A stretch of 64,000 nt of DNA from an uncultured Acidobacteriota bacterium (GTDB lineage: Bacteria > Acidobacteriota > Thermoanaerobaculia > Multivoradales > SZUA-115): positions 32,001 to 96,000 of the forward strand of contig CAWDVR010000002.1 in the NCBI GenBank assembly GCA_963805975.1. The letters run 5' to 3'. The notes under the pieces were generated by a model. The model ran no database searches, was not told the origin of the DNA, and was given only the letters and a program-made list of their open reading frames with translations. The position numbers and the translations under genes were made by a program. This document shows, in pieces, positions 2,431 through 19,530 of the stretch; within the stretch, counting starts at the first letter, position 1, and the number at the start of each line of letters is the position of its first letter.

Positions 2431-2576
2431 CGAGGTCCTCCTCAGGGATGCGTTTGGGCCTATAGTCAGGCGGAGAATAGCACCTCTCTTTCGGTTCAGA
2501 AGCCTGTGCTACGATGCCACAAAGACACTTCCGCATGCATTGGAATTCCACACTTCCACCTCGCAAGGAGATCCCC

Positions 2577-3284
2577 ATGAAGGTCAAGACTGCTTTGATC
2601 GCTGGGCTGGCTCTCTGGACCTTCGCCGTGTCCCCACCCGCCACTGCCACCTTCCACTTCATGCAGATCGAGCAAGTGATCGGCGGCTTGTGCGGCGACC
2701 CCCGGGCGCAGGCGATCCAGCTCCGCATGCGCGCCGCCGGCCAGGACGAGGTGGCGGGCAAGAAGCTCGTAGCCTTCGACGCGGCCGGCGCGAACCCCAT
2801 CACGCTGTTCACCTTCCCCAGCCCGGTGGCGGTGTCGACCAGCGGCTCGCGCATCCTGCTCGTCACCTCGGCGGCGGCACCGCTTCTGCCGGACGCCGAC
2901 TTCGTGACCTCGGTGGTGCTCCCGGCCTCGTACCTGGCGGCGGGCCGGATCGCCTTCGTGGACGAGTCGAACCTCGTCTACTGGTCGATCGCCTGGGGCG
3001 GCGCCGGCTATACCGGCACCAACACCGGCACCACCACCAACGACGCCGACGGCAACTTCAGCCCCCCGTTCGCCTCGGCCCTGCCCTCCTCCACCACGCA
3101 GGCGCTCCTCTTCCCCGGCGCCGCCAACGCCATGAGCACCAACAACGCGGCCGACTACTCGACCACCGCCGGGGCCGCGACCTTCACCAACAACGCCGGC
3201 GCCGCCGTGCTGCTGCCGCTCTGCGTGTTCGACGACGGCTTCGAGAGCGGCAACACCACCGCCTGGAGCCTGACCGTCCCGTAG
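2577..3284 (+). CDS. Secreted protein with C-terminal FDDGFESGNTTAWSLTVP tag
   Basis: AAGGAG RBS before ATG 2577, signal peptide, characteristic C-terminal tail. Confidence 0.8.
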   Translation: MKVKTALIAGLALWTFAVSPPATATFHFMQIEQVIGGLCGDPRAQAIQLRMRAAGQDEVAGKKLVAFDAAGANPITLFTFPSPVAVSTSGSRILLVTSAAAPLLPDADFVTSVVLPASYLAAGRIAFVDESNLVYWSIAWGGAGYTGTNTGTTTNDADGNFSPPFASALPSSTTQALLFPGAANAMSTNNAADYSTTAGAATFTNNAGAAVLLPLCVFDDGFESGNTTAWSLTVP

Positions 3285-3943: not shown

Positions 3944-4639
3944 ATGACCGTGCGGCGCATTCTCGGCTTCGCCCTGCTCCCAGCGCTCGGCCTCGGTGCC
4001 GCGGCCGGCGCCGGCGCGCAGAGCCTCAACCTCGATTTCGGAGCGCCGGAGAGTGGCCCCCCTCCCACCTATGCGGCGGCCGGCCGCGCCGGCACCTGGA
4101 ACAGCATCCCCGCCGCCCACGGCACCACCACCAGCGGGCTGGTGAACCTGGCCGGCTCGGCCACCGCCGCCTCGATCAGCCAGATCGGCGGCCTGGCGCT
4201 GCTCGACGACAACGACCCGGCGGTCACCGGCGACCATGCCCTGCTGCTCGACGACTTCCTGGTCACCTACAACGACGGCCTCGAGACCTGCATCTACCTG
4301 AACGGCCTCGAGCCCGGCACCTACACGGTGCTGATCTACGCCCGCATGCCCGACCCGGCCGTGGCGAGCTACACCAGCGTGGACCAGGAGGACGGCTTCC
4401 CCCACCACGCGGTGGGCGGGACCTGGCCGGGTGAGCACTCGAACCCGGGTTCCTTCTCCCGCCACCTGGCCGAGGTCGGCCCGGGCGGTGACCTCGACCT
4501 GCACTCCGGGATCTTCCCCGGGGCGAACGAGGTGCTGGGTGCCGCTCTGAACGGCCTGCAGGTGATCCGGCTCGAAAGTCTCTTTGCCGATAGTTTCGAG
4601 AGCGGTGACACCGCGGCCTGGAGCCTGACAGTGCCCTAG
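3944..4639 (+). CDS. Secreted protein with C-terminal FADSFESGDTAAWSLTVP tag
   Basis: GAGGAGG RBS, signal peptide, same tail as 2577..3284. Confidence 0.8.
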   Translation: MTVRRILGFALLPALGLGAAAGAGAQSLNLDFGAPESGPPPTYAAAGRAGTWNSIPAAHGTTTSGLVNLAGSATAASISQIGGLALLDDNDPAVTGDHALLLDDFLVTYNDGLETCIYLNGLEPGTYTVLIYARMPDPAVASYTSVDQEDGFPHHAVGGTWPGEHSNPGSFSRHLAEVGPGGDLDLHSGIFPGANEVLGAALNGLQVIRLESLFADSFESGDTAAWSLTVP

Positions 4640-4666
4640 CGGCGGGTGTGTTCTACGCTTGCCGGC

Positions 4667-5146
4667 ATGACCTCACGAGCCGACTTCCGCCTCCGGTCCG
4701 CCACTCCGGCGGACCATACCTGGATCCTGCCGCTCGCTCCCCGCCTGCACGACTTCGGGCCGCCGCCCTGGCGCTCCCGCCAGCGGATGGACCTGGCCGT
4801 GAGCGCCGCGATCGAGCGCGGCCTGCTCGAGAGACCGTCCGGCTCGAGCGTGATCGTGGCCGAGGACCCTGGCGGCGAGCCGGCCGGCTTCGTCCATCTC
4901 GAAACGGCGACGGATTTCTTCACCGGCGAGGCACACGGCCACGTCTCCGACCTGGTGGTCGCTCCCGGCTCCGAGGGCCGGGGTGTGGGCGCGCTGCTCA
5001 TGGCCGCGGCCGAGGCCTGGGCGCAGGAGCAGGGGTTCCGGCTCCTGACGCTCAACGTGTTCGGCGGCAACGAGCGCGCCCTGCACCTGTACCAGAGACT
5101 CGGCTTTCAGGCCGACGTCACCAAGATGGTCAAGGAGCTGCCCTGA
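4667..5146 (+). CDS. GNAT family N-acetyltransferase
   Basis: Motif A VVAPGSEGRGVGALLM; motif B LNVFGGNERALHLYQRLGF. Confidence 0.9.
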   Translation: MTSRADFRLRSATPADHTWILPLAPRLHDFGPPPWRSRQRMDLAVSAAIERGLLERPSGSSVIVAEDPGGEPAGFVHLETATDFFTGEAHGHVSDLVVAPGSEGRGVGALLMAAAEAWAQEQGFRLLTLNVFGGNERALHLYQRLGFQADVTKMVKELP

Positions 5147-5180: not shown

Positions 5181-7373
5181 TCAGATCTTCCCGCTCAACC
5201 CCACCGTGTAGCTCCTCCCCACCGCCCGGTCCGCGGCTTCGTCGGCGGCGGAGAAATAGCGCCGGTCGCCCAGGTTGCGGGCGGTGAGGCGCACCTCGAA
5301 GTTCTTCGCGAAGCGCCAGCCGCCGCCGGCATCGAAGATGGTGAAGCCCGGCCGGGGGTCCTCGGTCGGGCCCGGCTCGTCCTGCTCGAGGAACGTGGTC
5401 ACGCGGCCGAAGACGTAGCCGCTGCCGAAGGCGTAGCGGCCGGTGAGCCAGCCGTTGGGCGCCGTGATGTCGTCGATGTTCGCTCCGCCGTCGGTTTCGC
5501 CTTGTGCCCAGGTGGCACCCAGCTCGCCGCTCCAGGCGTCGGTGAAGGCCACCTGCCCTTCCAGCTCCAGGCCCTCGATGTTCGCTTCGCCGCGGTTCCT
5601 GAACTGGAAGTTGTCGCCGACCGTGAAGCGCTCGATCAGATCCTCGATGTCGTAGCGGTAGACGTAGAAGCCGAACGCCGTGCGGGCGTGGGCATAGCGC
5701 AGGCCGGCGTCGTACTGCAGGCTGGTCTCGGGATCGAGGTCGGGGTTGCCGACCACGAAGCCGCGCCCGGAAGGGCCGCGGAAGTAGCGGTCGGAGAGGG
5801 TCGGCGTGCGGAAGCCGCGCGCCACCTGGAGGGTCGCCGTCCAGTCGGTGGCCGGATGGGCGGTGAGCGCCAGGTTGCCGGAGAGCGCGGTGTGGTTCTG
5901 CGACTGGTCACCGAAGAAGCCGCCGGTGTTCTCGGTCGAGACGCGGTCGCCCCGCAGGCCGGCCCCGAAGCTGACCTTGGCGCCGAGGTCGCGGTTCCAG
6001 GTGGCGAAGAGGCCGGTCGCGATCTGGCGGGCGTCCTCGATCGAGTTGCTGACCGCCGTGCCGGTCACGGTGGTGGCGTCGGCCGCGAAGGTGGTACGGG
6101 TGAAGATCGCCTCCAGGTCGTAGCGGGCGTTGCCGTCGAGGCCGAGCTGCAACCGGCCGCCGCCCACCGGCCGGCCGGCCACGGCGCGGATCGAGGTGTC
6201 GTCGGCGTCCACGTCGGAGCGATCGATGCGCCGGGTCACGCCCGCTGCCGGAAACCGCTCGCGGTCGAGGATCAGGTGATAGGCGCCGGTGAAGAACGAG
6301 GCCTCGAGCGAGTCCCATCCGCCGCCGGGCACGCCGAGCCAGGAGGCGGTGAAGCGGTCCGAGTCCTCGGTCGGGTAGACGGCGCGGGTCGCCCGCGAGT
6401 CGATCGCCGCCTTGCCCAGATCGTCGTTGCGGTCGAGCGCCAGGCCCAGCCGCAGCCGGCCAGGGCCGGCATCGCGCACGTAGCGCACGGCCGCACCCTG
6501 GCCTTCGAATGCCGAGTTGAAGATCTCCTCGCCGCCACCCGCCTCGGCGTCGTCGGCGTCGCGGGAGTAAGCGTTCACCAGGAAGCTGCCGCCGGCCGCG
6601 TCCGCGGACGCACTGACGTCGCCGCCCTTCTGATCGATCGCACCGAGCCCGGCCTCGAGACCGAAGCGGAGGTGGAAACGGCCGGGCTCGGGGTCGCGGG
6701 TGATGGCGTTGATCACGCCACCGAAAGCGTCCGAGCCGTAGACCACGGAGCCGGGGCCGCGCAGCACTTCCACCGAGGCGAGGCTCGCCGGGTCGACGAA
6801 GGTGGCGGACGGGCCGGCGCGGCGCTCGGCGGTGACGCGGGCGCCGTCGATCAGGATCAGCGTCCGGCCGCGCCCCAGGTTGCGCAACGCCGGCACGCTG
6901 TCGACGCCGTCGCCGAGCTTGGAGGCGCCGGCGACCGACTCGAGCGCCTGGTAGATGCGCACCGGGGCACGCTGCTCGAGCTCCTCCTGGGTGAGCACGG
7001 TGCTGGCGTTGCCGGGCAGGATGTCGAGGCTCGGCGCGATGCCGGAGACCACGGTGACGCTGTCGCGCATCACCTCGGGCACGTTGAGCTCGAGCGTGCC
7101 CTCGGGCAGGGTCTCGACCGCCATCGGAGCCGACACGTCGCCGTTGGGGCCACTCGCCACGATCTCGAACGGGGTCTGGGGCGCGGGGTCGAAGGTAAAG
7201 CTGCCGTCGGGGCCGCAGCGCGCCGACTGCGACTGGCCGACCACGGTCACCACGTAGCCGGCGGCGGGGTCGCCCTCGGGCAGCAGCAGGCGGCCCTCGA
7301 GGGCCGCGAAGGCAGGGGAAGCGATGAGCAACACGGCCAGGACGAGACCCGGCCGCGACAGGCGAGAGATCAT
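5181..7373 (-). CDS. TonB-dependent receptor
   Basis: Signal peptide, carboxypeptidase-regulatory-like N domain, plug motif VEVLRGPGSVVYGSDAFGGVIN, GNPDLDPE, beta-barrel C-terminus. Confidence 0.92.
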   Translation of the reverse strand: MISRLSRPGLVLAVLLIASPAFAALEGRLLLPEGDPAAGYVVTVVGQSQSARCGPDGSFTFDPAPQTPFEIVASGPNGDVSAPMAVETLPEGTLELNVPEVMRDSVTVVSGIAPSLDILPGNASTVLTQEELEQRAPVRIYQALESVAGASKLGDGVDSVPALRNLGRGRTLILIDGARVTAERRAGPSATFVDPASLASVEVLRGPGSVVYGSDAFGGVINAITRDPEPGRFHLRFGLEAGLGAIDQKGGDVSASADAAGGSFLVNAYSRDADDAEAGGGEEIFNSAFEGQGAAVRYVRDAGPGRLRLGLALDRNDDLGKAAIDSRATRAVYPTEDSDRFTASWLGVPGGGWDSLEASFFTGAYHLILDRERFPAAGVTRRIDRSDVDADDTSIRAVAGRPVGGGRLQLGLDGNARYDLEAIFTRTTFAADATTVTGTAVSNSIEDARQIATGLFATWNRDLGAKVSFGAGLRGDRVSTENTGGFFGDQSQNHTALSGNLALTAHPATDWTATLQVARGFRTPTLSDRYFRGPSGRGFVVGNPDLDPETSLQYDAGLRYAHARTAFGFYVYRYDIEDLIERFTVGDNFQFRNRGEANIEGLELEGQVAFTDAWSGELGATWAQGETDGGANIDDITAPNGWLTGRYAFGSGYVFGRVTTFLEQDEPGPTEDPRPGFTIFDAGGGWRFAKNFEVRLTARNLGDRRYFSAADEAADRAVGRSYTVGLSGKI

Positions 7374-7480
7374 GGAGGTACCTCCAGAGAATCCGGTTCC
7401 AGGAAGCGGCACGCCACCCTCGGGCGAGGGGACGGCCAAGATCTACGCTCGGGGGATCGCGCGCTCCGGCGCGCCGGGGC

Positions 7481-8275
7481 TCACTCGTTGAGGCGCTGGA
7501 TGAGCGAGAGGATGGGAATGCTGCGCTGCGCGGGCGAGGTCCGGCTCGGCGTCGTGAGGGCCGACAGCGTGCCGCCCCAGGACTCCGCGGGCGCCTGGGC
7601 TTCCGGCGCCATCTCGCGCAGCGGTCCGGCCGCGAGCCACCACAGGCCCGCGGAGGGCTGCGCCGTGGGCGAGAGCGCGCTATCGGTCCCCAGGCTCTCG
7701 ACCTCCGTCCAGCCGCTGCCGTCGCGCCGTCCCTCGGCCCAGGCGGTGACGCCCGCGTCGCCCACGCGCGCCGGCTCGCCGCGCCGCAGGGACCAGCGGC
7801 GCGCCAGCGGCCGCACGGCGACGCCCCGTAGCTCGCGCACCCGGAACCGTGCCGCGACCGGCTGGTCGAACTCGCGTTTCTCGTTGCCGAAACGCAGCAG
7901 GAGGCGGGCATCGTCGGAGGGCGTCCCCGGCAGGCGGACGCTGACGCGGCGGCTCTCGACGGTCAGGTGCGGGGTCAACCGCACCGGAAAGGTGCGCCCC
8001 CCGTCGAGCGACCAGAAAGCCTCCCACTCTTCCACCTCTTCTAGCTCCTCGAGACCCGGACCCGGTACCCACTCGAGCCACACCAGCTCACCCGCACCCA
8101 GCTCGGCGCCGTCGAGCGGCGCCACGAGCCGGGCCAGGGGTTGGGCCCGCGGCCGCTCCTCCCGCTCCTCGGTCTCGGCAGCGATCGCGGGTGCCCCGGC
8201 AGCGGGCGCCGCGACCGCGAGCAGCAAGGTAAGGACCCCAGTCAGGCCCTGAATGAGAAGGCGGCGCCAGATCAT
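7481..8275 (-). CDS. Exported hypothetical protein (Ig-like/Asp-box segment), translationally coupled to the methyltransferase
   Basis: MIWRRLLIQGLTGVLTLLLAVAAPAA signal peptide; WSLDGGRTF; ATGA overlap with the upstream stop at 8272-8275. Confidence 0.65.
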   Translation of the reverse strand: MIWRRLLIQGLTGVLTLLLAVAAPAAGAPAIAAETEEREERPRAQPLARLVAPLDGAELGAGELVWLEWVPGPGLEELEEVEEWEAFWSLDGGRTFPVRLTPHLTVESRRVSVRLPGTPSDDARLLLRFGNEKREFDQPVAARFRVRELRGVAVRPLARRWSLRRGEPARVGDAGVTAWAEGRRDGSGWTEVESLGTDSALSPTAQPSAGLWWLAAGPLREMAPEAQAPAESWGGTLSALTTPSRTSPAQRSIPILSLIQRLNE

Positions 8276-9075
8276 CGAGCCTGATTCTCCTCCACAGTGG
8301 TCTCTCCTCCCAGCCGCGCCAGCACCTCGGCATCCACGGGCGTGACTCCGAGCGGCGGCACGCAGAGGGTGGTGCGGACCGTGGCCGGAGCTCCGCCGAG
8401 CTCGGTGACCGGGAGGTGCAGCACACGGGGTCCGCAGACTGGATACGCGCTCGCCTCGTAAAGGGTTACCCGGTGGCGGGGCGGGTAGTGCCGGAGGAGC
8501 TCCTCGGAGAGCACTTCGAGGCCGCGGCGGTTCCACAGCTCGCCCTTGCGGAAGTCGCGCACGCCGATCACTCCCACCTGCCAGAGGACCAGCAGGCTGG
8601 CCGGGTCGAAGCGCCGCCGGCGGATCAGGAAGTCGGTGGCCTCGAAGGACTGGCAGCCGAGCGCGCCGGGGTCGAGGCCGAGGTCGGCGAACAGGCAGTC
8701 CTCGGCGGAGATGCCGGGGAGCATCCGCGCCTCGTAGCCCTCGGCACGCGCTTGGCGGATCGCTTCGTGCGGCGGCGTGGCGAAGACCCCCGGGTGCCCG
8801 TAGAACGCGGCGCACACCCAGCGGCCGTCGCGCACCGGCGCCAGGATGCGCTCGGCCATCTCGATATAGGTCTCGCCGCGGTCGCGGCCGGGGTGGTAGC
8901 TCGAGTGCAGGGACTCGGCGGTGGGGTTTTTTTCCTCGAGCCAGCGGCTGGTCACGTTGTCGTTCACCAGGTAGAAGAGCCGGTCCGCTCTCTCGATGGC
9001 GGACAGCGCCTCGCGGGTCACCTGGCCGGCCAGAGAGAAGCCCGTGCCCACCACTGTGAGCGAACCATTCGCCAT
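8272..9075 (-). CDS. Split-borosin alpha-N-methyltransferase (SonM/OphMA-like, tetrapyrrole methylase fold)
   Basis: GSLTVVGTG, Y-x5-R-x3-Y (SYHPGRDRGETY), FYGHPGVF, PGISAEDCLFADLGLDPG, QSFEATDF, LWQVG, LYEAS. These are borosin methyltransferase signatures. Confidence 0.9.
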   Translation of the reverse strand: MANGSLTVVGTGFSLAGQVTREALSAIERADRLFYLVNDNVTSRWLEEKNPTAESLHSSYHPGRDRGETYIEMAERILAPVRDGRWVCAAFYGHPGVFATPPHEAIRQARAEGYEARMLPGISAEDCLFADLGLDPGALGCQSFEATDFLIRRRRFDPASLLVLWQVGVIGVRDFRKGELWNRRGLEVLSEELLRHYPPRHRVTLYEASAYPVCGPRVLHLPVTELGGAPATVRTTLCVPPLGVTPVDAEVLARLGGETTVEENQAR

Positions 9076-9134
9076 CGCTTAAATTCTCCTCGCGTGGTAC
9101 TCTAACGCCTTCCCATTCGATGAAGGGGGGTACG

Positions 9135-9350
9135 ATGGCCCTGCAGGACCTGCAGAAGTTCCTTTTGGACCTTTCTGAGCAGCCCGGTTTGCGGACGCAG
9201 TTCAAGGAGTCCCCCGACGAGATCATGACTGCCGCAGGCCTCACGGAGGAGGAGCAGGCGCTCGTCCGCTCGGGCGACGAGAAGGCGATCCGTAGCTACC
9301 TCGGCGACGAGGGCGAGACCTGCAGCGCGATCAAGACGACGTTTTGCTAG
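9135..9350 (+). CDS. Borosin RiPP precursor (SonA-like borosin-binding domain plus core [11 protein letters not shown])
   Basis: 71 aa; LQKFLLDLSEQPGLRTQFKESPDEIMTAAGLTEEEQALVRSGD matches the LigA-like BBD pattern; AAGGGGGG RBS; adjacent to the methyltransferase. Confidence 0.82.
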   Translation: MALQDLQKFLLDLSEQPGLRTQFKESPDEIMTAAGLTEEEQALVRSGDEKAIRSYLGDEGETCSAIKTTFC

Positions 9351-11784
9351 GCGACGGCAGCCCGACGGCCTCGAGCAGCCGCTCGAAGCGTGGCTCGCCG
9401 TAGAGCGGCCGATAGTCCGGCACCACGGCCAGCCAGCCGAGCACCCAGGCCTTGCGCTGGTACCCCCGCTCGAGCCAGGCGAGGGCCTTCTCTTTCTCGC
9501 CGGCGAGCGCCAGCAGGCCGGCCACCACCCCGATGTGCGCCGGCGTCTCCTCCCGCACCTGATCGAGCTCCAGGGCCACCCAGCGCAGGGCGGCCGTGTA
9601 GCCGCTCGCGGCCAGGATCTCGTCGTAGCGCGGCAGCAGCTCCGGATGACCGAAGCCTGCGAGGTAGCGCCGCAGCTCCTGGCCGCGCTCGGGGTCCTTG
9701 CCCAGGCTGTCGTAGACCAGCCACAGCGAGTCGTGGGTGGGGCTGTAGGTCGGGTCGAGCTCGAGCGCGTGCCGGAGCTCGCGGATCGCCGCCTCGTACT
9801 GCTTCTCGAACAAATATTGCACCCCGACGTCGACGCGCGCCCGGACGGAGACCGGGTCGAGCGCGGCGGCGCGCTCGATCTCGGCGCGGGACTCGACGAA
9901 CCGGCGCTGGCAGACGAGGAGCATCCAGTACTTGCGCCGCGCGAGGGCCGAGCTGGGATCGAGCTCCACGGCGCGGCGGATCTCGCGCTCCGCCGCCGCC
10001 CACTGCCAGCGGTCGAGCGCCAGCTCGCCCAGCGCGGCATGGCCCTCGGCCAGGGTCTCGTCCAGTGCGATGGCGCGCCGCGCCGCCTCCTCGGCCTGGG
10101 GCAGGAGCTCGGCCGGATCGGCGTGAAACGAGGCCTGCCAGATCAGCGAGTCGGCGAGGCCCGCCCAGGCGGGCGCAAAGCTCGGGTCGCTGTCGAGCGC
10201 GCTCTTGAAGAACTTCTGCGCCTGCCGGTGCGCCTCCTCGCCGGAGCGGCTGGCGTGGAACTTCCCCTGCAAGTAGGCCTGGTACACCTCGGGGTCGACG
10301 GAGCGGGTGCTCGCCATGCGCGTGGCCTCGGCGGTGGAGAGCTCGATGCCCGCGGCCTGGGCGATCGAGGTGGCGAAGGTATTGTGCAGAGCGGTGACGT
10401 CCGAGAACGCCCGCTCCAGGCTGTCGGACCACAGGGTGGCCTCGGGCCGGGCGCGGACCAGTTGCGCGGAGAGGCGTACCTTCTCCCCCATCCGCTCGAC
10501 GGAGCCCTCCACCACGTAGTCCACGCCGAGGTCGGAGGCGATCTCCGAGGCCAGCTTGCGCGAGCCCTTGTAGTGCATGGCGGACTGGCGGGAGATGACG
10601 CGCAGCGCCTTGATCTTGGCGAGCGAGGAGATCAGGCCGTCGGTCATGCCGTCCACGAAGTACTCGGGCTCGCCGGAGAAGCTGGCGAGCGGCAGCACGA
10701 CCAGCGCCGGCTGCGCGGTCTGGGCGCGGGAGGTGGCGGCCAAAGGTTTCTGACGCTCGGTGGCCGGCCGGCCACGCCGGTACCAGGCGCCGGCCCCGCC
10801 GGCGACCAGCGCCAGGGCCACCGCCGCCGCTACCCAGCGGGTGGTGGCGCGGCGCGGGCGCCAGGGCAGGCTCAGGGAGGCGCTGCTGAGCGCACCCCGG
10901 CCGAGCGTGCCCCGGGTGGTGAGCTTCTGGGCCGCGCCGGCCAGCGCTTCGCGCGCCTCGGCCGCGGACTGGTAGCGCGCTTCCGGCGTCTTTTCCAGGC
11001 AGCGCAGCACGACCTCGTTGAGGCCGGCGGGAAGGTTCGGCTTCAGCCGCCGCATAGCGGCCGGCTGGTCGCGCAGCACCGCGGAGATCAGATCGGCCGG
11101 GTTGGCGCCCTGGAACGGGCAGACGCCGGTCGCCATCTCGTAGAGCACGACGCCGAGCGCGAAGACGTCCACCCGCGGGTCCGGGGTACGGCCCTGGAGC
11201 TGCTCGGGCGCCATGTAGGCGAGCGTGCCGATGATCCGCCCCTCGCGGGTCAGGCTGTCCCCCGTCATGCCGGCCCGGGGCAGGCCGTGGAGCTGGGTGG
11301 CGTCGCTGTCGCCGGAATAGAGCTTGGCGAGGCCGAAGTCGAGCACCTTCACCCGGCCCTCGGGGGTGACCATGATGTTGCCGGGCTTGAAGTCGCGGTG
11401 GGTGATGCCGCGCGCATGCGCCGCGGCCAGGGCGTCGGCCATCGGCACCGCCAGGCGCAGCACCTCGCGCGTGTCGAGGCCACCGGCCGGGATCATCTGC
11501 TCGAGCGTCTTGCCCTCGACGTGCTCCATGGTCAGGAAGCGCTCGCCGGCGGCTTCCTCGACCGAGTAGAGGGTGACGATGTTCGGGTGGTTGAGGGCGG
11601 CGACCGCCTTGGCCTCGCGCTCGAAGCGGCGCATCGGCTGCGGATCGTGCGCCATCTCGGGCGGCAGGAACTTGAGCGCCACCTTGCGCTGCAGGCGCAT
11701 GTCCTCGGCGAGATACACCACGCCCATCCCGCCCTCGCCGAGCTTGTCCAGGATGCGGTAGTGGGAAAAGGTACGGCCGACCAC
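9331..11784 (-). CDS. Hanks-type Ser/Thr protein kinase with TM segment, TolB-like domain and TPRs
   Basis: [30 protein letters not shown]; LVVLPL...[12 protein letters not shown]; TPR helices. Start approximate. Confidence 0.92.
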
Positions 11785-11957
11785 GGGGTTCCTGGGCCGG
11801 TACTCTAGCAGCCCGCGGCCGAGCCGGCTGTGGAGTGCCAACGCCCCGGCGGCTACGTTGGCGCGATCGGGGCGAAAACCCTTGACCCTTTCCTACAGGA
11901 GTAGTAGAAAGAGCCGAGCCCATCCGCTCCCGCCTCGGGGAGCAAAAAGGAGGCTGC

Positions 11958-13265
11958 ATGCCGCGCTCGGCCCGTTTCAGCTCGATCCTGGTTCTCGCTG
12001 CTCTCGCCACCTCCTCCGGCGTTCTGGCCGACGACTGGCCGCAGTGGCGCGGCCCGCGGCGGGACGGCAAGTCCGCCGAGACCGGCCTGCTCACGGAATG
12101 GAAGGAAGGAGGCCCGCCGCTCGCCTGGCAGGCGAGCGGCCTGGGAGGCGGGTTCTCGAGCCTCGCCATCACCGGCGGCCGGATCTACACCATGGGTGAC
12201 CTCGAGGGGGGCGAGGCCGAGGGCGGCCAACACGTGCTGGCCCTCGATGCCGCCAACGGCAAGGTGGTGTGGAAGACGCGGATCGGCCCGAAGTGGGAGG
12301 ACGAGTACGGCGGCTCGCGCGCCACTCCCACCGTCGACGGTGGCCAGGTCTTCGCGGTCTCGACCGAGGGCGAGGTCGTCTGCCTCGAAGCCGCCACCGG
12401 CAAGCAGGTGTGGAGCCGCAGCCTGGCCAAGGACTTCGGCGGCCGGATGATGGAGATCCGGGGCACCCACTGGAAGTTCTCCGAGTCGCCGCTCGTCGAT
12501 GGCGACGCGGTGATCGTGACGCCGGGCGCCAAGGCCGCCGCGCTGGTGGCGCTCGATCGCAAGACCGGCGCCGAGCGCTGGCGCACGGCGCTGCCGGACC
12601 TGGGGCCCAAGGGTGCCGACGGCGCGGGCTACTCCTCGGTGGTGATCTCGCACGGTGCCGGCGTCAAGCAGTACGTGCAGCTCCTGGGCCGCGGCCTGGT
12701 CGGCGTGGATGCCAAGACCGGCAAGTTCCTGTGGGGCTACAACAAGGTGGCGAACGACGTGGCGAACATCCCCACGCCGCTCGTCGACGGCGATCACGTG
12801 TTCACGGCCACCGGCTACGGCGCCGGCGGCGCGCTCCTCGAGCTGCGCAAGAACGGCGACGGCGTGGCGGCCAACGAGGTCTACTTCCTCGCCGGCGACA
12901 CCTTCCAGAACCACCACGGCGGCATGATCCTGGACCACGGCTTCGTGTTCGCCGGCACCGGCCACAACAAGGGCTTCCCGGTGAGCCTGAAGCTGGCCGA
13001 CGGCAAGCTCGCCTGGGGGCCCATCCGCAACCAGGGCCAGGGCTCGGCGGCCGTCACGTTCGCCGACGGCCACCTCTACATGCGCTACCAGAACGGCCTC
13101 GTGCTGCTGGTCGAGGCGACGCCCGAGGGCTACCGCGAGAAGGGCTCGTTCAAGATCCCCAACGTCAATCACCCGAGCTGGTCGCACCCGGTGGTGGCGG
13201 GCGGCAAGCTCTTCCTGCGCGAGCAGGGCACGCTCTACGTCTACGACCTGAAAGCCACCGGCTGA
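11958..13265 (+). CDS. PQQ-binding-like beta-propeller repeat protein (BamB-like)
   Basis: Signal peptide, DWPQWRGPRRDG, repeated LDAxTGKxxW, WSHPVVAGGKLFLR. Confidence 0.88.
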   Translation: MPRSARFSSILVLAALATSSGVLADDWPQWRGPRRDGKSAETGLLTEWKEGGPPLAWQASGLGGGFSSLAITGGRIYTMGDLEGGEAEGGQHVLALDAANGKVVWKTRIGPKWEDEYGGSRATPTVDGGQVFAVSTEGEVVCLEAATGKQVWSRSLAKDFGGRMMEIRGTHWKFSESPLVDGDAVIVTPGAKAAALVALDRKTGAERWRTALPDLGPKGADGAGYSSVVISHGAGVKQYVQLLGRGLVGVDAKTGKFLWGYNKVANDVANIPTPLVDGDHVFTATGYGAGGALLELRKNGDGVAANEVYFLAGDTFQNHHGGMILDHGFVFAGTGHNKGFPVSLKLADGKLAWGPIRNQGQGSAAVTFADGHLYMRYQNGLVLLVEATPEGYREKGSFKIPNVNHPSWSHPVVAGGKLFLREQGTLYVYDLKATG

Positions 13266-15701: not shown

Positions 15702-18700
15702 ATGCCGGACGACCCCCAACTGCCTGCCCCACCCGCGAGGAGCTTCGGCAGCGGTGGCCCTCTCTCGTACCTGTCCCCCGGGGCGCGCAAGGAGAAGCTC
15801 CGCCAGCGCTCGTACCACAAAGGGACCGGGGCCAAGCGCCCCTTGCCCTATGCCGAGCTGCGCGCCGCCTCGGCGTTCTCCTTCCTGGAAGGCGCCTCGC
15901 TGCCCGAGGACCTGGTCGAGCGCGCCGCGGCCTGCGAGCTGCCGGCCATGGCGCTGGTGGACCGGAACGGCGTCTACGGCGCGCCGCGCTTCTACCGGGC
16001 GGCCCGCGAGGCGGGCCTCAAGGCCCTGGTGGGGGCCGAGGTGGCGCTGTCAACCGGCCCTCGTTCCGGTGGCACGGCCCCGGCAACGGCCGGCACAGGT
16101 CCGGCCGCTACGCGTTTTCGTGGTCCCCTGGGCCTGGTGCCGGAGCCCCCGCCCCGGTTGCCGGGGCCCGGAGAGGACCGCCCGCCGCGGCTGACGCTGC
16201 TGGTGGAGAGCCGCGCAGGCTACAAGAACCTGTGCCGGCTGCTCACCGCCGCGGCCCGCGGCCGGACCAAGGGCGATGCGCGGGCCGATTGGGAGGTACT
16301 GGCCGCCCACGCCAGCGGCCTCCACTGCCTGACCGGCGGCGGTGAGGGCCCCCTGGCGCGTGCTCTCACCCACGACGGCATGGAAGCGGCGCGGCGCTTC
16401 CTCGAACGCCTCGCCGCGCTCTTCCCCGGCCGCCTGCACGTCGAGCTGCAGCGCCACGGTGTCAAAGAGGAGGAGCAGCGGAACGCGGCCCTCGTCGACC
16501 TCGCCCGGCGCCTGAAGCTGCCGCTCGTCGCCACCAACGGCGTGGCCTACGCGCGGCGCGAGGACAAGCCCCTCCACGACGTGCTGACCTCGATCCGCGA
16601 GCACACCGAGCTCGACAAGGCCGGCGCGCTCCTCGCCGCCCACCGCGAGCGGCACGTCAAGACCGCGGCCGAGATGGCGCGGCTCTTCGCCGACCTGCCG
16701 CGGGCGGTGACGGCGAGCTGGGAGCTCTCCGAGCGCCTCGGCTTCACCCTCGCCGACCTCGGCTACCGCTTCCCGGACTACCCGCTGCCGCCGGGCGAGA
16801 CGCCGGCCTCCTATCTTCGCCAGGTGACCTGGAGCGCGGCCCAGGCCCGCTTCCGGCCGCTCACGGCGCGCGCCCAGGCCCAGGTCGAGAAGGAGCTGGC
16901 GGTGATCGAGAAGCTCGATCTCGCCGGCTACTTCCTCATCGTCTGGGACGTGGTGCGCTTCTGCCAGCGCTCGGGCATCCTCGCCCAGGGCCGCGGCTCG
17001 GCCGCCAACAGCGCGGTCTGCTACGCGCTGGGCATCACCGCCGTGGACCCGGTGAAGATGGGCCTGCTCTTCGAGCGCTTCCTCTCCGAGGAGCGCGGCG
17101 AGTGGCCGGACATCGACCTCGACCTGCCCTCGGGGGCGCAGCGAGAGAAGGTGATCCAGCACGTCTACACCCGCTACGGCCCGCACGGCGCGGCGATGAC
17201 CGCCAACGTCATCACCTACCGCGACCGCTCCTCCACCCGCGAGGTGGCGAAGGTGCTGGGCTACTCGGCGGAACAGGTGGACCAGCTCGCCAAGCGGCTC
17301 GGCACCTTCAACTACGACCTGGTGCGCGGCGACGAGAAGAACCTCGAGCGCGAGATCGCCGCCGCCGGCTTCGACCCGGAGGAGCGGCGCATGCAGCTCT
17401 TCGCCGAGCTGTGGAAGAAGGTCCATCACCTCCCCCGCCATCTCGGCCAGCACTCGGGCGGCATGGTGATCGCCGCCGGCCGGCTCGACGAGGTGGTGCC
17501 GCTCGAGCCCTCATCCATGCCGGGCCGCGTGGTCGTGCAGTGGGACAAGGACGACTGCGCGGACTTAGGAGTAGTCAAGGTCGACCTCCTGGGCCTCGGC
17601 ATGCTGAACGCTCTCGCGGAGGTGATCCCGCTCGTCAGGCGCCACGAGCGGCTGCACGTCGACCTCGCACACCTGCCCCCGGACGATGCCAAGACCTTCG
17701 AGATGATCCGCCGCGCCGACACGGTCGGGGTGTTCCAGATCGAGAGCCGCGCCCAGATGGCCTCGCTCCCCCGGCATTCCCCCGAGCGGTTCTACGACCT
17801 GGTGGTGCAGGTGGCCATCATCCGGCCCGGGCCGATCGTCGGCGGCATGGTGCACCCCTTCTTCGAGCGCCGCCGCGGGCGCCAGCCGGTCGTCTACCCC
17901 CACCCGAGCCTCGAGCCGGTGCTGAAGCGCACTCTCGGCGTGCCGCTCTTCCAGGAGCAGATCCTGCGCGTCGCCATGGTGGCGGCGGGCTTCACCGGCG
18001 GCGAGGCCGAGGAGCTGCGCCGGGCCATGGGCTTCAAGCGCTCGCAGGAGCGCATGGTCGCCATCGAGGAGCGCCTGCGCTCCGGCATGGCGGCGCGCGG
18101 CATCACCGGCCCGGCGCAGGACCAGATCGTGCAGTCGATCACCTCCTTCGCGCTCTACGGCTTCCCGGAGTCGCACGCCGCGAGCTTCGCGCTCATCGCC
18201 TACGCCAGCGCGTACTTGAAAGCCCATCACCCCACGGCCTTCTACACCGCGCTGCTCAACGCCTGGCCGATGGGCTTCTACCACCCGGCGACCCTGGTGA
18301 AGGACGCCGAGCGCCACGGCGTCGAGGTGCGGGCGATCGACGTGGCGCGGTCGGGATGGCGGTGCCGGTGGGAGGCGGCGCCCTCACCCCGGCCCTCCGG
18401 ACGTAGCGGCCGGACCCGTGCCGGCCGTTCTTCGTGGCCCGGACCGACGGCCGGTACAAGCCCGGCCGCTACGGCCGGAAAAGAGACCTCGATCGCCGGC
18501 ACCCTGCGCCTGGGCCTCCGCTATGTGCGTGGCCTCAAGCAGGCGACCGGCGAGCGCATCGAGGCCGAGGCGGCGCGGCAGCCGTTCGCGAGCGTCGAGG
18601 ATCTGGTGACGCGCTGTCACATCGGCGAGGCCGAGGTCGGCGCCCTGGCCTCGGCCGGCGCGCTCGCCGGCTTCGGGCTCACCCGCCGCCAAGCCCTGTG

Positions 18701-19190
18701 GCAGGTGGCGTGGACGGCCCGCCCGGCCGGGCCGCTCTTCGCCGGCGAGGAAGGCTCGCCCTCGCCACTACCCGAGATGGAGCCGCTCGAGGAGACGGTC
18801 ACCGACTTCCTGACCACCGGCATGACCGTGGGCCCCCATCCCCTGGCCTACTTCCGGCCGAAGCTCAAGCGCATGGGAGCGGTCCAGAACGCGGCCCTCG
18901 ACAAGCTGCCGGCCGGCAAAAAAGTGCGCATCGCCGGCTCGGTGATCGTGCGCCAGCGCCCCCCCACCGCCAAGGGCCTGCTCTTCATCACCCTCGAGGA
19001 CGAGAGCGGCATGGCCCAGGCCATCGTACAGCCGGACCAGCTCAAGGAGCACCGCAGCCTGATCGTCGGCTCCCCCGGCCTGATGATCGAAGGCATCCTT
19101 CAGAAGCGCGACGGCAGCCTCTCCGTCAAGGCCGAGAAGTTCTGGTCGCTCCGCCGGCTGGAGGCACCCCCGAGCCACGACTTCCGGTGA
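15702..19190 (+). CDS. dnaE2: Error-prone DNA polymerase DnaE2 (ImuC)
   Basis: PHP YAEL...SAFSFLEGAS, GRGSAANS, PDIDLD, PRHLGQHSGG, KVDLLGLGML, YGFPESHA, RQRPPTAKG, C-terminal SHDFR typical of DnaE2. Confidence 0.95.
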   Translation: MPDDPQLPAPPARSFGSGGPLSYLSPGARKEKLRQRSYHKGTGAKRPLPYAELRAASAFSFLEGASLPEDLVERAAACELPAMALVDRNGVYGAPRFYRAAREAGLKALVGAEVALSTGPRSGGTAPATAGTGPAATRFRGPLGLVPEPPPRLPGPGEDRPPRLTLLVESRAGYKNLCRLLTAAARGRTKGDARADWEVLAAHASGLHCLTGGGEGPLARALTHDGMEAARRFLERLAALFPGRLHVELQRHGVKEEEQRNAALVDLARRLKLPLVATNGVAYARREDKPLHDVLTSIREHTELDKAGALLAAHRERHVKTAAEMARLFADLPRAVTASWELSERLGFTLADLGYRFPDYPLPPGETPASYLRQVTWSAAQARFRPLTARAQAQVEKELAVIEKLDLAGYFLIVWDVVRFCQRSGILAQGRGSAANSAVCYALGITAVDPVKMGLLFERFLSEERGEWPDIDLDLPSGAQREKVIQHVYTRYGPHGAAMTANVITYRDRSSTREVAKVLGYSAEQVDQLAKRLGTFNYDLVRGDEKNLEREIAAAGFDPEERRMQLFAELWKKVHHLPRHLGQHSGGMVIAAGRLDEVVPLEPSSMPGRVVVQWDKDDCADLGVVKVDLLGLGMLNALAEVIPLVRRHERLHVDLAHLPPDDAKTFEMIRRADTVGVFQIESRAQMASLPRHSPERFYDLVVQVAIIRPGPIVGGMVHPFFERRRGRQPVVYPHPSLEPVLKRTLGVPLFQEQILRVAMVAAGFTGGEAEELRRAMGFKRSQERMVAIEERLRSGMAARGITGPAQDQIVQSITSFALYGFPESHAASFALIAYASAYLKAHHPTAFYTALLNAWPMGFYHPATLVKDAERHGVEVRAIDVARSGWRCRWEAAPSPRPSGRSGRTRAGRSSWPGPTAGTSPAATAGKETSIAGTLRLGLRYVRGLKQATGERIEAEAARQPFASVEDLVTRCHIGEAEVGALASAGALAGFGLTRRQALWQVAWTARPAGPLFAGEEGSPSPLPEMEPLEETVTDFLTTGMTVGPHPLAYFRPKLKRMGAVQNAALDKLPAGKKVRIAGSVIVRQRPPTAKGLLFITLEDESGMAQAIVQPDQLKEHRSLIVGSPGLMIEGILQKRDGSLSVKAEKFWSLRRLEAPPSHDFR
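16085..16112 (-). repeat. GTAG-family REP inside the dnaE2 coding sequence
   Basis: Reverse complement CGTAG-CGGCCGG-ACCTGTG-CCGGCCG-TT, identical to 58263-58290. Confidence 0.85.
18402..18473. repeat. Inverted REP doublet (REPIN-like) inside dnaE2
   Basis: CGTAGCGGCCGGACCCGTGCCGGCCGTT ... ACGGCCGGTACAAGCCCGGCCGCTACG. Confidence 0.85.
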
Positions 19191-19239: not shown

Positions 19240-19530
19240 GTGGCCATCCAGAGCTTCGCCGACCCCGAGGTCGAGACCTTCTTCTTCCAGGGCCGGATAC
19301 CGAAACGCGCCGGATGGGCCAACCTAGACAGCGTGGTGCGTAGAAAGCTCGACATGGTCGACTACGCCGACAAGCTGCGGGATCTCGCGGCACCTCCGGG
19401 CAATCGTCTGGAGGAATTGAAGGGAAAGCTCGCCGGCTTCCATAGCATTCGGATCAACGATCAGTGGCGGATCGTCTTCCGCTGGACCGCCGCCGGTCCG
19501 ACCGCGGTCGACATCGTGGACTACCATTAG
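19240..19530 (+). CDS. higB: HigB (RelE/ParE-like) toxin
   Basis: IQSFAD...PPGNRLEELKG...HSIRINDQWRIVFRW...VDIVDYH. Confidence 0.92.
   Translation: MAIQSFADPEVETFFFQGRIPKRAGWANLDSVVRRKLDMVDYADKLRDLAAPPGNRLEELKGKLAGFHSIRINDQWRIVFRWTAAGPTAVDIVDYH

Follow-up and report, generated by a model that had tools for sequence, protein, structure and literature searches.

The best-described relative of the system considered here is SonM/SonA of Shewanella oneidensis MR-1, a type IV split borosin whose product is shewanellamide A (PDB 7LTC and related; PMC8429565, PMC10549244, PMC11751858). Type IV is the commonest borosin type, with 746 of 947 representatives; 56% of borosin clusters contain GGDEF genes, and in type X the enzyme is fused to a sensor made of tetratricopeptide repeats (TPR), a transmembrane segment and a GGDEF domain (bioRxiv 10.1101/2021.12.24.474128). 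More than 2,500 borosin clusters have been predicted. The sam cluster of Shewanella amazonensis comprises SamM1, SamA1 and SamP/shewasin A (bioRxiv 10.1101/2024.01.09.574750). Shewanellamide A was the first bacterial borosin product to be isolated; it has no known role and showed no antibiotic activity on six strains (PMC10549244). The present analysis concerns a split borosin locus in a 64,000-nt stretch of DNA, here called the window, from an uncultured Acidobacteriota bacterium (Thermoanaerobaculia; Multivoradales; SZUA-115; assembly GCA_963805975.1, contig CAWDVR010000002.1, positions 32,001–96,000).

The locus is almost certainly a type IV split borosin of the SonM/SonA kind in a Thermoanaerobaculia genome. 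An earlier note on this DNA had already proposed an acidobacterial split borosin, and the best PDB matches, SonM for the enzyme and SonA for the peptide, bear this out. Taken alone, the enzyme–precursor pair adds one more ordinary member to a class already published. The earlier note overlooked, and its stretch leaves out, the third gene of the cassette, which encodes a Ser/Thr kinase; the notable feature of the locus is this dedicated, co-inherited, receptor-like kinase, which makes the function of bacterial borosins testable.

Like SonM/SonA, the pair combines a stand-alone enzyme of about 265 aa that has the same active-site residues with a 71-aa precursor that has a five-helix borosin-binding domain (BBD) and a Gly-Asp junction ahead of a short core. 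As in the son cluster (PMC10549244), a signalling gene lies alongside and no protease adjoins the pair, a point that the earlier note had made correctly. The pair departs from SonM/SonA in that its genes stand head-to-head, the precursor has a promoter element of its own, a small Ser takes the place of SonA Y62, two Cys residues are lineage-specific and the host belongs to the Acidobacteriota. The partner here is a Ser/Thr kinase with a CadC-like/TPR domain, in place of the GGDEF protein and cation efflux pump of the son cluster (PMC10549244). The locus resembles the type X split borosins and the GGDEF-containing borosin clusters, in which a borosin enzyme is likewise paired with a protein predicted to sit in the membrane, its TPR domain outward and its signalling output cytoplasmic; here, however, the output is a protein kinase rather than a diguanylate cyclase, the protein is encoded by a separate gene on the strand opposite the precursor, and the sensor includes a CadC-like α/β subdomain. 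The sam cluster shares the type IV architecture and shows that methylation can serve as a recognition mark, but the present pair has no pepsin-like protease gene beside it, and its core is short and hydrophobic rather than long and acidic. The three genes of the cassette and the parts of the kinase are as follows.

8272..9075, minus strand: borosin α-N-methyltransferase of the SonM type, 267 aa, without a fused BBD (SonM match, active-site residues)
9135..9350, plus strand: precursor, 71 aa, with a five-helix BBD (about residues 1–57) and a C-terminal core (SonA matches, model)
9331..11784, minus strand: Hanks-type Ser/Thr kinase gene, likely start GTG at 11784, open frame to 11841
about 10969–11760, minus strand: kinase domain, catalytic motifs present
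10780–10836, minus strand: predicted membrane helix, a hydrophobic 19-mer (sequence prediction)
9334–10716, minus strand: CadC-like α/β plus TPR sensor domain, the C-terminal 461 aa (model and fold matches)

A kinase gene inherited with the borosin pair

The kinase is a dedicated, co-inherited third member of a conserved cassette, and a functional link between it and the borosin pair is very probable. Its gene converges on that of the precursor, the 3′ end overlapping the last 20 bases of the latter. The arrangement was followed in two sets of loci, one from genomes (the best 80 of 216 enzyme matches, giving 78 loci) and one from metagenomes (the best 80 of 413 matches, giving 80 loci). The head-to-head pair of the earlier note, with 59 bp between the start codons (9076–9134), is confirmed; the divergent layout, which that note contrasted with SonA, is present here but is not peculiar to this locus, since it recurs in 26 of the 78 genome loci (L078, with a longer gap, added by hand) and in 20 of the 80 metagenome loci. 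A kinase gene converges on the precursor in all 26 divergent genome loci (24 recognized by script, plus L078 and L019, in which the precursor reads through). Among the 20 divergent metagenome loci the kinase is present in 14 and absent in one, and the contig ends within 79 bp of the precursor in the other five, so that 14 of 15 informative loci have it; these counts of divergent loci are not independent because many of the loci sit at a single site, that between panB and a deoxynucleoside kinase gene (dNK). Several co-oriented pairs also have a kinase, which then converges on the enzyme side (L007, L012, L014, L020, L123). The trio is found at about eight other sites as well, giving about nine flanking contexts and two gene orders. 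In the genome under study panB and dNK are adjacent with the site empty, and the three cassette genes lie together elsewhere.

This genome (5.36 Mb, 96% complete) has one SonM-type enzyme and one SonA-type precursor, and its 35 kinase-domain matches include a single sensor-domain match, the cassette kinase. Its closest relative is a metagenome-assembled genome of the same genus (locus L001, identical with L082). A search of 60 relatives with the sensor domain alone produced matches in 55 of 61 genomes. Ten of the 13 best non-self matches lie no more than 0.8 kb from a borosin enzyme that had been found independently, and the remaining three involve two genomes with a borosin pair elsewhere. 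In contrast, none of the 34 weaker sensor matches listed for borosin-bearing genomes is within 3 kb of an enzyme (108 further matches lie beyond those listed). All 12 genomes with a sensor match above 270 bits carry the enzyme, as against 7 of the 48 others, with the qualification that the cut-off was set after the data had been seen and that kin genomes are not independent.

In a quick likelihood tree of 60 sensors, made with no bootstrap and with duplicates and partial sensors of fewer than 300 residues left out, one clade holds 40 of the 41 linked sensors and two of the 19 unlinked ones (SH-aLRT 99). Within it the sub-clades correspond to precursor class, and the two cassettes that L017 has in tandem fall with different classes. 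Over 33 cassettes, distances correlate between sensor and enzyme (rho 0.62), sensor and precursor (0.44; partial 0.25) and precursor and enzyme (0.41); these values indicate that the three genes are inherited together, and not which pair of products touches.

No description of the kinase link was found in the published literature, of which subscription journals were sparsely covered. The words "kinase" and "Acidobacteria" are absent from the main text of 10.1101/2021.12.24.474128, whose image Table 1 and supplement may list them. A word search of the available text of 10.1101/2024.01.09.574750 and PMC11395268 likewise returned neither word, and the supplement of the former may list them.

Several loci display rearranged forms of the cassette. 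Tandem arrays with different core classes stand at the panB–dNK site, either as whole cassettes (L002, L017) or with extra kinases (L004, L008, L010, L038, L044, L055); in L004 a sequence that looks like the final few codons of a methyltransferase since lost (about 7300–7419) comes after the second kinase. In L120 and L221 (genome G044) the kinase remains at the DUF4126 site where L051 and L078 hold a full cassette, and the matching precursor, enzymes and protease are on another contig near a transposase; this may be a cassette that has been split but retained. L141 (2430–5176) consists of a divergent enzyme, five precursor copies and a methyltransferase fragment, flanked by genes that, judged by eye, resemble those for a RarA-type ATPase and DsbD.

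The sensor domain and a possible signalling role

CadC has a DNA-binding output and senses pH, not peptides. Rap proteins are receptors for unmodified peptides, soluble and located in the cytoplasm; RRNPP/Rap-type receptors are soluble cytoplasmic TPR proteins whose N-terminal output is a helix-turn-helix or Rap domain. The sensor domain of the cassette kinase was modelled with high confidence (pLDDT 94.5). Its best fold match is the CadC periplasmic domain (Z 20.5, root-mean-square deviation (rmsd) 4.3, 294 residues aligned), followed by Rap–peptide complexes (Z about 18) and other TPR proteins. The fold is shared with E. coli CadC (3LY7) and with Rap/Phr-type TPR receptors (8RSV, 4I9C) at 10–13% identity, and fold alone shows no function. 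Membership of the RRNPP/Rap-type receptors was rejected, the protein having a kinase output and a predicted membrane helix instead, but it may work alike. Two other assignments were also set aside. The model for the peptide modification system cyclase TIGR04510 scores 38 bits against a cut-off of 400, in the sensor region only, and 50 of 54 sensors match it weakly, unlinked ones included. Of the class III/IV lanthipeptide synthetase models, LanL scores 103 bits (cut-off 650) and LanKC 69 bits (cut-off 575); both matches are centred on the kinase domain, and the C-terminus is CadC-like/TPR.

The peptide may act as a signal, because throughout one class of Acidobacteria the pair travels with a kinase that bears a predicted outward-facing sensor. 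Our preferred, though tentative, reading is that the cassette is a peptide-signalling module, in which a methylated and likely linear peptide would be the signal for the Ser/Thr kinase encoded tail-to-tail with it; the peptide could be the ligand of the kinase sensor, a point held with the same reserve. In such a module the BBD would dock on the enzyme, which would then N-methylate the core backbone in a reaction dependent on S-adenosylmethionine (SAM), both steps following SonM/SonA. As with shewanellamide A, an unlinked protease would cut after G57 and release a linear core about 14 residues long, and the freed peptide would then reach the CadC-like/TPR domain and switch the kinase. A prediction of the complex between the sensor (residues 4–456, 54-row alignment) and the precursor (31-row alignment), with the ligand unmethylated, scored 0.02 (mark 0.32), a value that speaks neither for nor against binding.

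A wider and more speculative extension is that a dedicated family of receptor Ser/Thr kinases has the acidobacterial borosins at large as its ligands. N-methylation would make a protease-resistant peptide that is read by the CadC-like/TPR sensor, tandem cassettes with different cores would be parallel specific channels, and a like scheme, with GGDEF or a STAND kinase as the output, could explain bacterial borosins generally. With a single enzyme, a single 71-aa precursor and a single candidate receptor whose sensor is modelled with confidence, the cassette would allow the signal idea to be tested on a minimal set of three genes. Paralogues that naturally carry other cores, such as the two L017 cassettes, supply built-in controls of specificity. 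If binding proves true, bacterial borosins would have a function, and a peptide-gated receptor kinase would become available for engineering.

A number of observations weigh against the signalling proposal. Topology is its main difficulty: the sensor is predicted to face the periplasm while the precursor lacks a signal peptide, the cassette has no conserved exporter, and cell pellets were the only place where shewanellamide A was found (PMC10549244). Unrelated TPR proteins score Z 16–18 in the fold comparison, so the likeness to Rap is generic. Sensor distances track those of the enzyme better than those of the precursor. The linkage itself has exceptions, with L141 lacking a kinase within 2.4–2.6 kb of flank, the L071 kinase falling outside the linked clade, and 7 of the 19 borosin-bearing relatives having no sensor match above 270 bits; the tree is a quick one, and many divergent loci occupy a single panB–dNK site. 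In some members, at least, the sensor can be cytoplasmic, because the cassette kinases of L051 and L078 have no hydrophobic stretch.

The chief rival, which we consider unlikely overall, is a cytoplasmic link through the kinase domain. The kinase might sense an outside cue and phosphorylate the methyltransferase or the precursor, or the intact precursor might bind the kinase domain with methylation acting as a switch. Such a link would need no export, and it would accommodate both the closer tracking of the enzyme by sensor distances and the pH-sensing role of CadC, the best fold match. It would also have a parallel in S. amazonensis, where methylation is a recognition mark for a protease (bioRxiv 10.1101/2024.01.09.574750). 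What speaks for a ligand-specific sensor instead is that this domain diverges faster than the kinase domain (67% versus 87% identity to the same-genus orthologue) and that its sub-clades match precursor class; moreover, no Ser or Thr is invariant across the aligned precursors.

It is improbable that the kinase is a passenger, kept by synteny without shared function beside a pair that makes an ordinary linear borosin. The descent of many loci from the one panB–dNK site, the kinase-free exceptions just described and the wide occurrence of related sensor domains would all fit such a passenger, but the link persists through moves to about nine sites, a rearrangement of the gene order and the duplication of entire cassettes in tandem, and the linked kinases form a clade of their own, the weaker paralogues listed never lying near a borosin enzyme.

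Still less probable is a tailoring role, in which the kinase would phosphorylate Ser or Thr of the core to give a doubly modified RiPP (a peptide that is made by the ribosome and modified after translation). The catalytic motifs are intact, the core offers T62, S64, T68 and T69, and kinases do act on cores in class III/IV lanthipeptide synthetases. Core phosphorylation is nevertheless unlikely because 7 of 31 aligned cores, that of the same-genus orthologue among them, have no Ser or Thr after the conserved Gly (the 31 precursors were picked from kinase-linked loci, and all column counts refer to these); in addition, the LanL and LanKC scores are far under their cut-offs and the architecture is that of a membrane receptor.

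The enzyme, the precursor and its core

The borosin active-site pattern that the earlier note had picked out in the methyltransferase is confirmed in the 267-aa open reading frame (ORF), which carries Y60..R66...Y70, YGHPGVF and GISAEDCLFADLG. Both of the borosin motifs YGHP and DCLFAD (bioRxiv 10.1101/2021.12.24.474128) are present. Among PDB sequences SonM matches best (195.7 bits, E 6.5e-57), in an alignment that spans it end to end, and the fungal borosin enzymes come next (OphMA, 185 bits). Y60, R66, Y70 and Y92 align with SonM Y58, R67, Y71 and Y93, residues that matter for catalysis or SAM binding (PMC8429565), and the active site is intact. Across 33 cassette enzymes R66, Y70, Y92, F98, E145, W165 and Q166 are invariant, and 31 of them retain Y60. 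The enzyme does not group with the cobalamin or MazG methylases, the outcome that the earlier note had named as fatal to its proposal: it scores 37.8 bits against a YabN cut-off of 525 and at most 25.7 bits, far under the cut-offs, with the precorrin methylases.

The precursor's seven best PDB sequence matches are all SonA constructs (E 5e-5 to 8e-5), and the 71-aa ORF is the only significant BBD match in its genome. The model has five helices (pLDDT 74), and the top seven Foldseek rows are SonA chains with rmsd values of 1.2–1.7 Å, the best being 1.2 Å over 56 columns; the weak E-values (0.16–0.44) are expected because the protein is so small. The small ORF is thus a BBD-type peptide, as the earlier note had maintained, by sequence and by predicted fold. 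A search of the protein database with the precursor retrieved itself alone (2 candidates). An in-frame ATG at 9120 would yield 76 aa; the start at 9135 is favoured because of a ribosome-binding site at 9123–9130 and the starts of relatives.

9095..9103, plus strand: putative extended −10 element (TGnTAnnnT) of the precursor gene, 31 nt before the ATG

Of 27 divergent intergenic regions, 17 have an extended −10 element on the precursor strand, 31–42 nt ahead of the ATG (shuffle mean 1.3, maximum 6 in 1000), and none has one on the other strand; the loci are related, so the count is not independent. The element supports the small ORF as a separately transcribed gene. Across 7000–12200 a sigma-70 scan gave no full promoter, and terminator-like sites numbered two against 1.1 expected. 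Among the sequencing runs listed as containing this DNA, none was of RNA. A palindromic box like TGTGA-N6-TCACA, absent from the window, lies between the divergent genes in 12 of the 27 loci (shuffle mean 0.5; L003, L004, L006, L008, L010, L013, L022, L023, L038, L044, L051, L055); we take it to be similar to boxes of the CRP/FNR or Rex type.

9306..9347, plus strand: predicted core D58–C71; its start is placed, on the model of shewanellamide A, at the Asp that follows the conserved Gly
9330–9332, plus strand: codon of I66, the likely methylation site, perhaps together with T68 (I/V column and SonA register)

Shewanellamide A begins at the Asp that follows G55 (PMC10549244), and the Gly-Asp/Glu/Gln junction before the core is conserved among the aligned precursors. 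The conserved residue of the core itself is at column 66, which is Ile or Val in 27 of 31. In exact SonA register the methylated L63 and I65 of SonA would correspond to A65 and K67 here. However, the SonA variant Y62A shifts methylation to V64, a bulky residue being needed ahead of the first site (PMC11751858). Because the residue in that position is S64 here, the first methylation would be expected at I66; by this analogy SAM-dependent N-methylation falls somewhat more probably on the hydrophobic I66 than on A65/K67. The product is likely linear, like shewanellamide A.

Long precursors of some relatives repeat Ile-containing units such as IKGKTAA, IRDPL and PIVKK. Those with highly basic, Ile/Lys-rich tandem repeats (L005:3622–3981, L020:3465–3995, L029, L056, L017:7282–7830) are possibly multi-core substrates.

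The two cysteines of the core, C63 and C71 (codons at 9321–9323 and 9345–9347), led the earlier note to propose a disulfide-closed, N-methylated macrocycle, C-SAIKTTF-C, and a survey of homologs for the pair. The codons are unlikely to be sequencing errors because two soil metagenome runs of separate studies cover them with near-identical contigs (X1, about 98% identical; X2, about 99%) in which no difference is listed at either codon; of the four runs compared, X4 and X5 gave no cover over the precursor. The survey used a profile built from the loci, which gathered 91 distinct precursors from genomes and 70 from metagenomes, the sets partly overlapping. Two Cys after residue 50 occur in 5 of the 91 (the present precursor, two with adjacent CC and two read-through ORFs) and in 6 of the 70 (five with adjacent CC and one with a duplicated core); in neither set does another precursor have a Cys pair that brackets the core. 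Column 63 is a small-residue column (19 Ala, 8 Gly, one Cys among 31), and C71 lies one codon beyond the usual end, 22 of the 31 having ended before position 71 and one having Cys there. The same-genus orthologue, one codon shorter, ends QIKICF with a single Cys at position 69. The ring is accordingly unsupported, because the cysteines are not conserved; they are a lineage-specific quirk, and the ring should not be pursued as a family trait. A C-x7-C disulfide would be chemically possible if the core entered an oxidising compartment, and both Cys persist in the near-identical strains of two other samples, but with no thiol oxidase near the pair and with SonM holding its core by backbone contacts that are largely independent of side chains (PMC8429565) the macrocycle is very improbable.

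Variant relatives and neighbouring genes

Where the core contains just one Cys (mostly PPGC), the methyltransferase gene is followed by a second copy (L007:4825–5538, L014:4795–5514, L032:4778–5533, L041:4786–5550, L051:4783–5541, L078:4816–5574). Gly or Ala replaces the catalytic Arg in all six aligned copies, the second Tyr is also lost in most, and in L032 the copy is fused to the first. Judged by these residues, it is likely a conserved pseudo-enzyme.

Five loci at three or more sites have a papain-family (C1) peptidase gene, with Cys, His and Asn motifs, head-to-head with the precursor (L007:2691–3617, L012:2690–3616, L014:2715–3707, L221:4217–5302 in G044, L226:8278–9210 in genome G034). 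It is a candidate new borosin maturation protease; a PF00112 search of the 96%-complete genome under study gave no match. A PF00026 search of that genome was also without a match, as was its control anywhere.

A parallel arrangement occurs in L025, L026, L028, L030, L035 and about 20 other loci, mostly cyanobacterial, in which TPR genes follow the enzyme, the precursor has a tail rich in Pro and Asp (PDPLPDPDP) and a kinase gene is also present. In the cyanobacterial L035 the order is enzyme, two TPR proteins, precursor and then a kinase–AAA protein.

7481..8275, minus strand: ORF of 264 aa with a signal-peptide-like start and no Pfam or NCBIfam match; its ATG overlaps the methyltransferase stop (ATGA)

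The 264-aa ORF is probably co-transcribed with the methyltransferase here. It was rejected as a cassette member, being found beside the enzyme solely in the same-genus locus L001/L082. The same holds for the TonB receptor and PQQ-type propeller genes, found in the same-genus locus alone, and for the GNAT gene at 4646–5146, which has no match in the other loci.

Farther out in the window, two secreted-looking proteins without a Pfam match (2514–3284 and 3944–4639, plus strand) share the C-terminal motif F.DGFESG.T.AWS. A gene of the DNA polymerase III alpha family, likely of the error-prone DnaE2 type, occupies 15702–19190 on the plus strand, and a short ORF at 19240–19530 has, judged by eye, the look of a HigB-type toxin.

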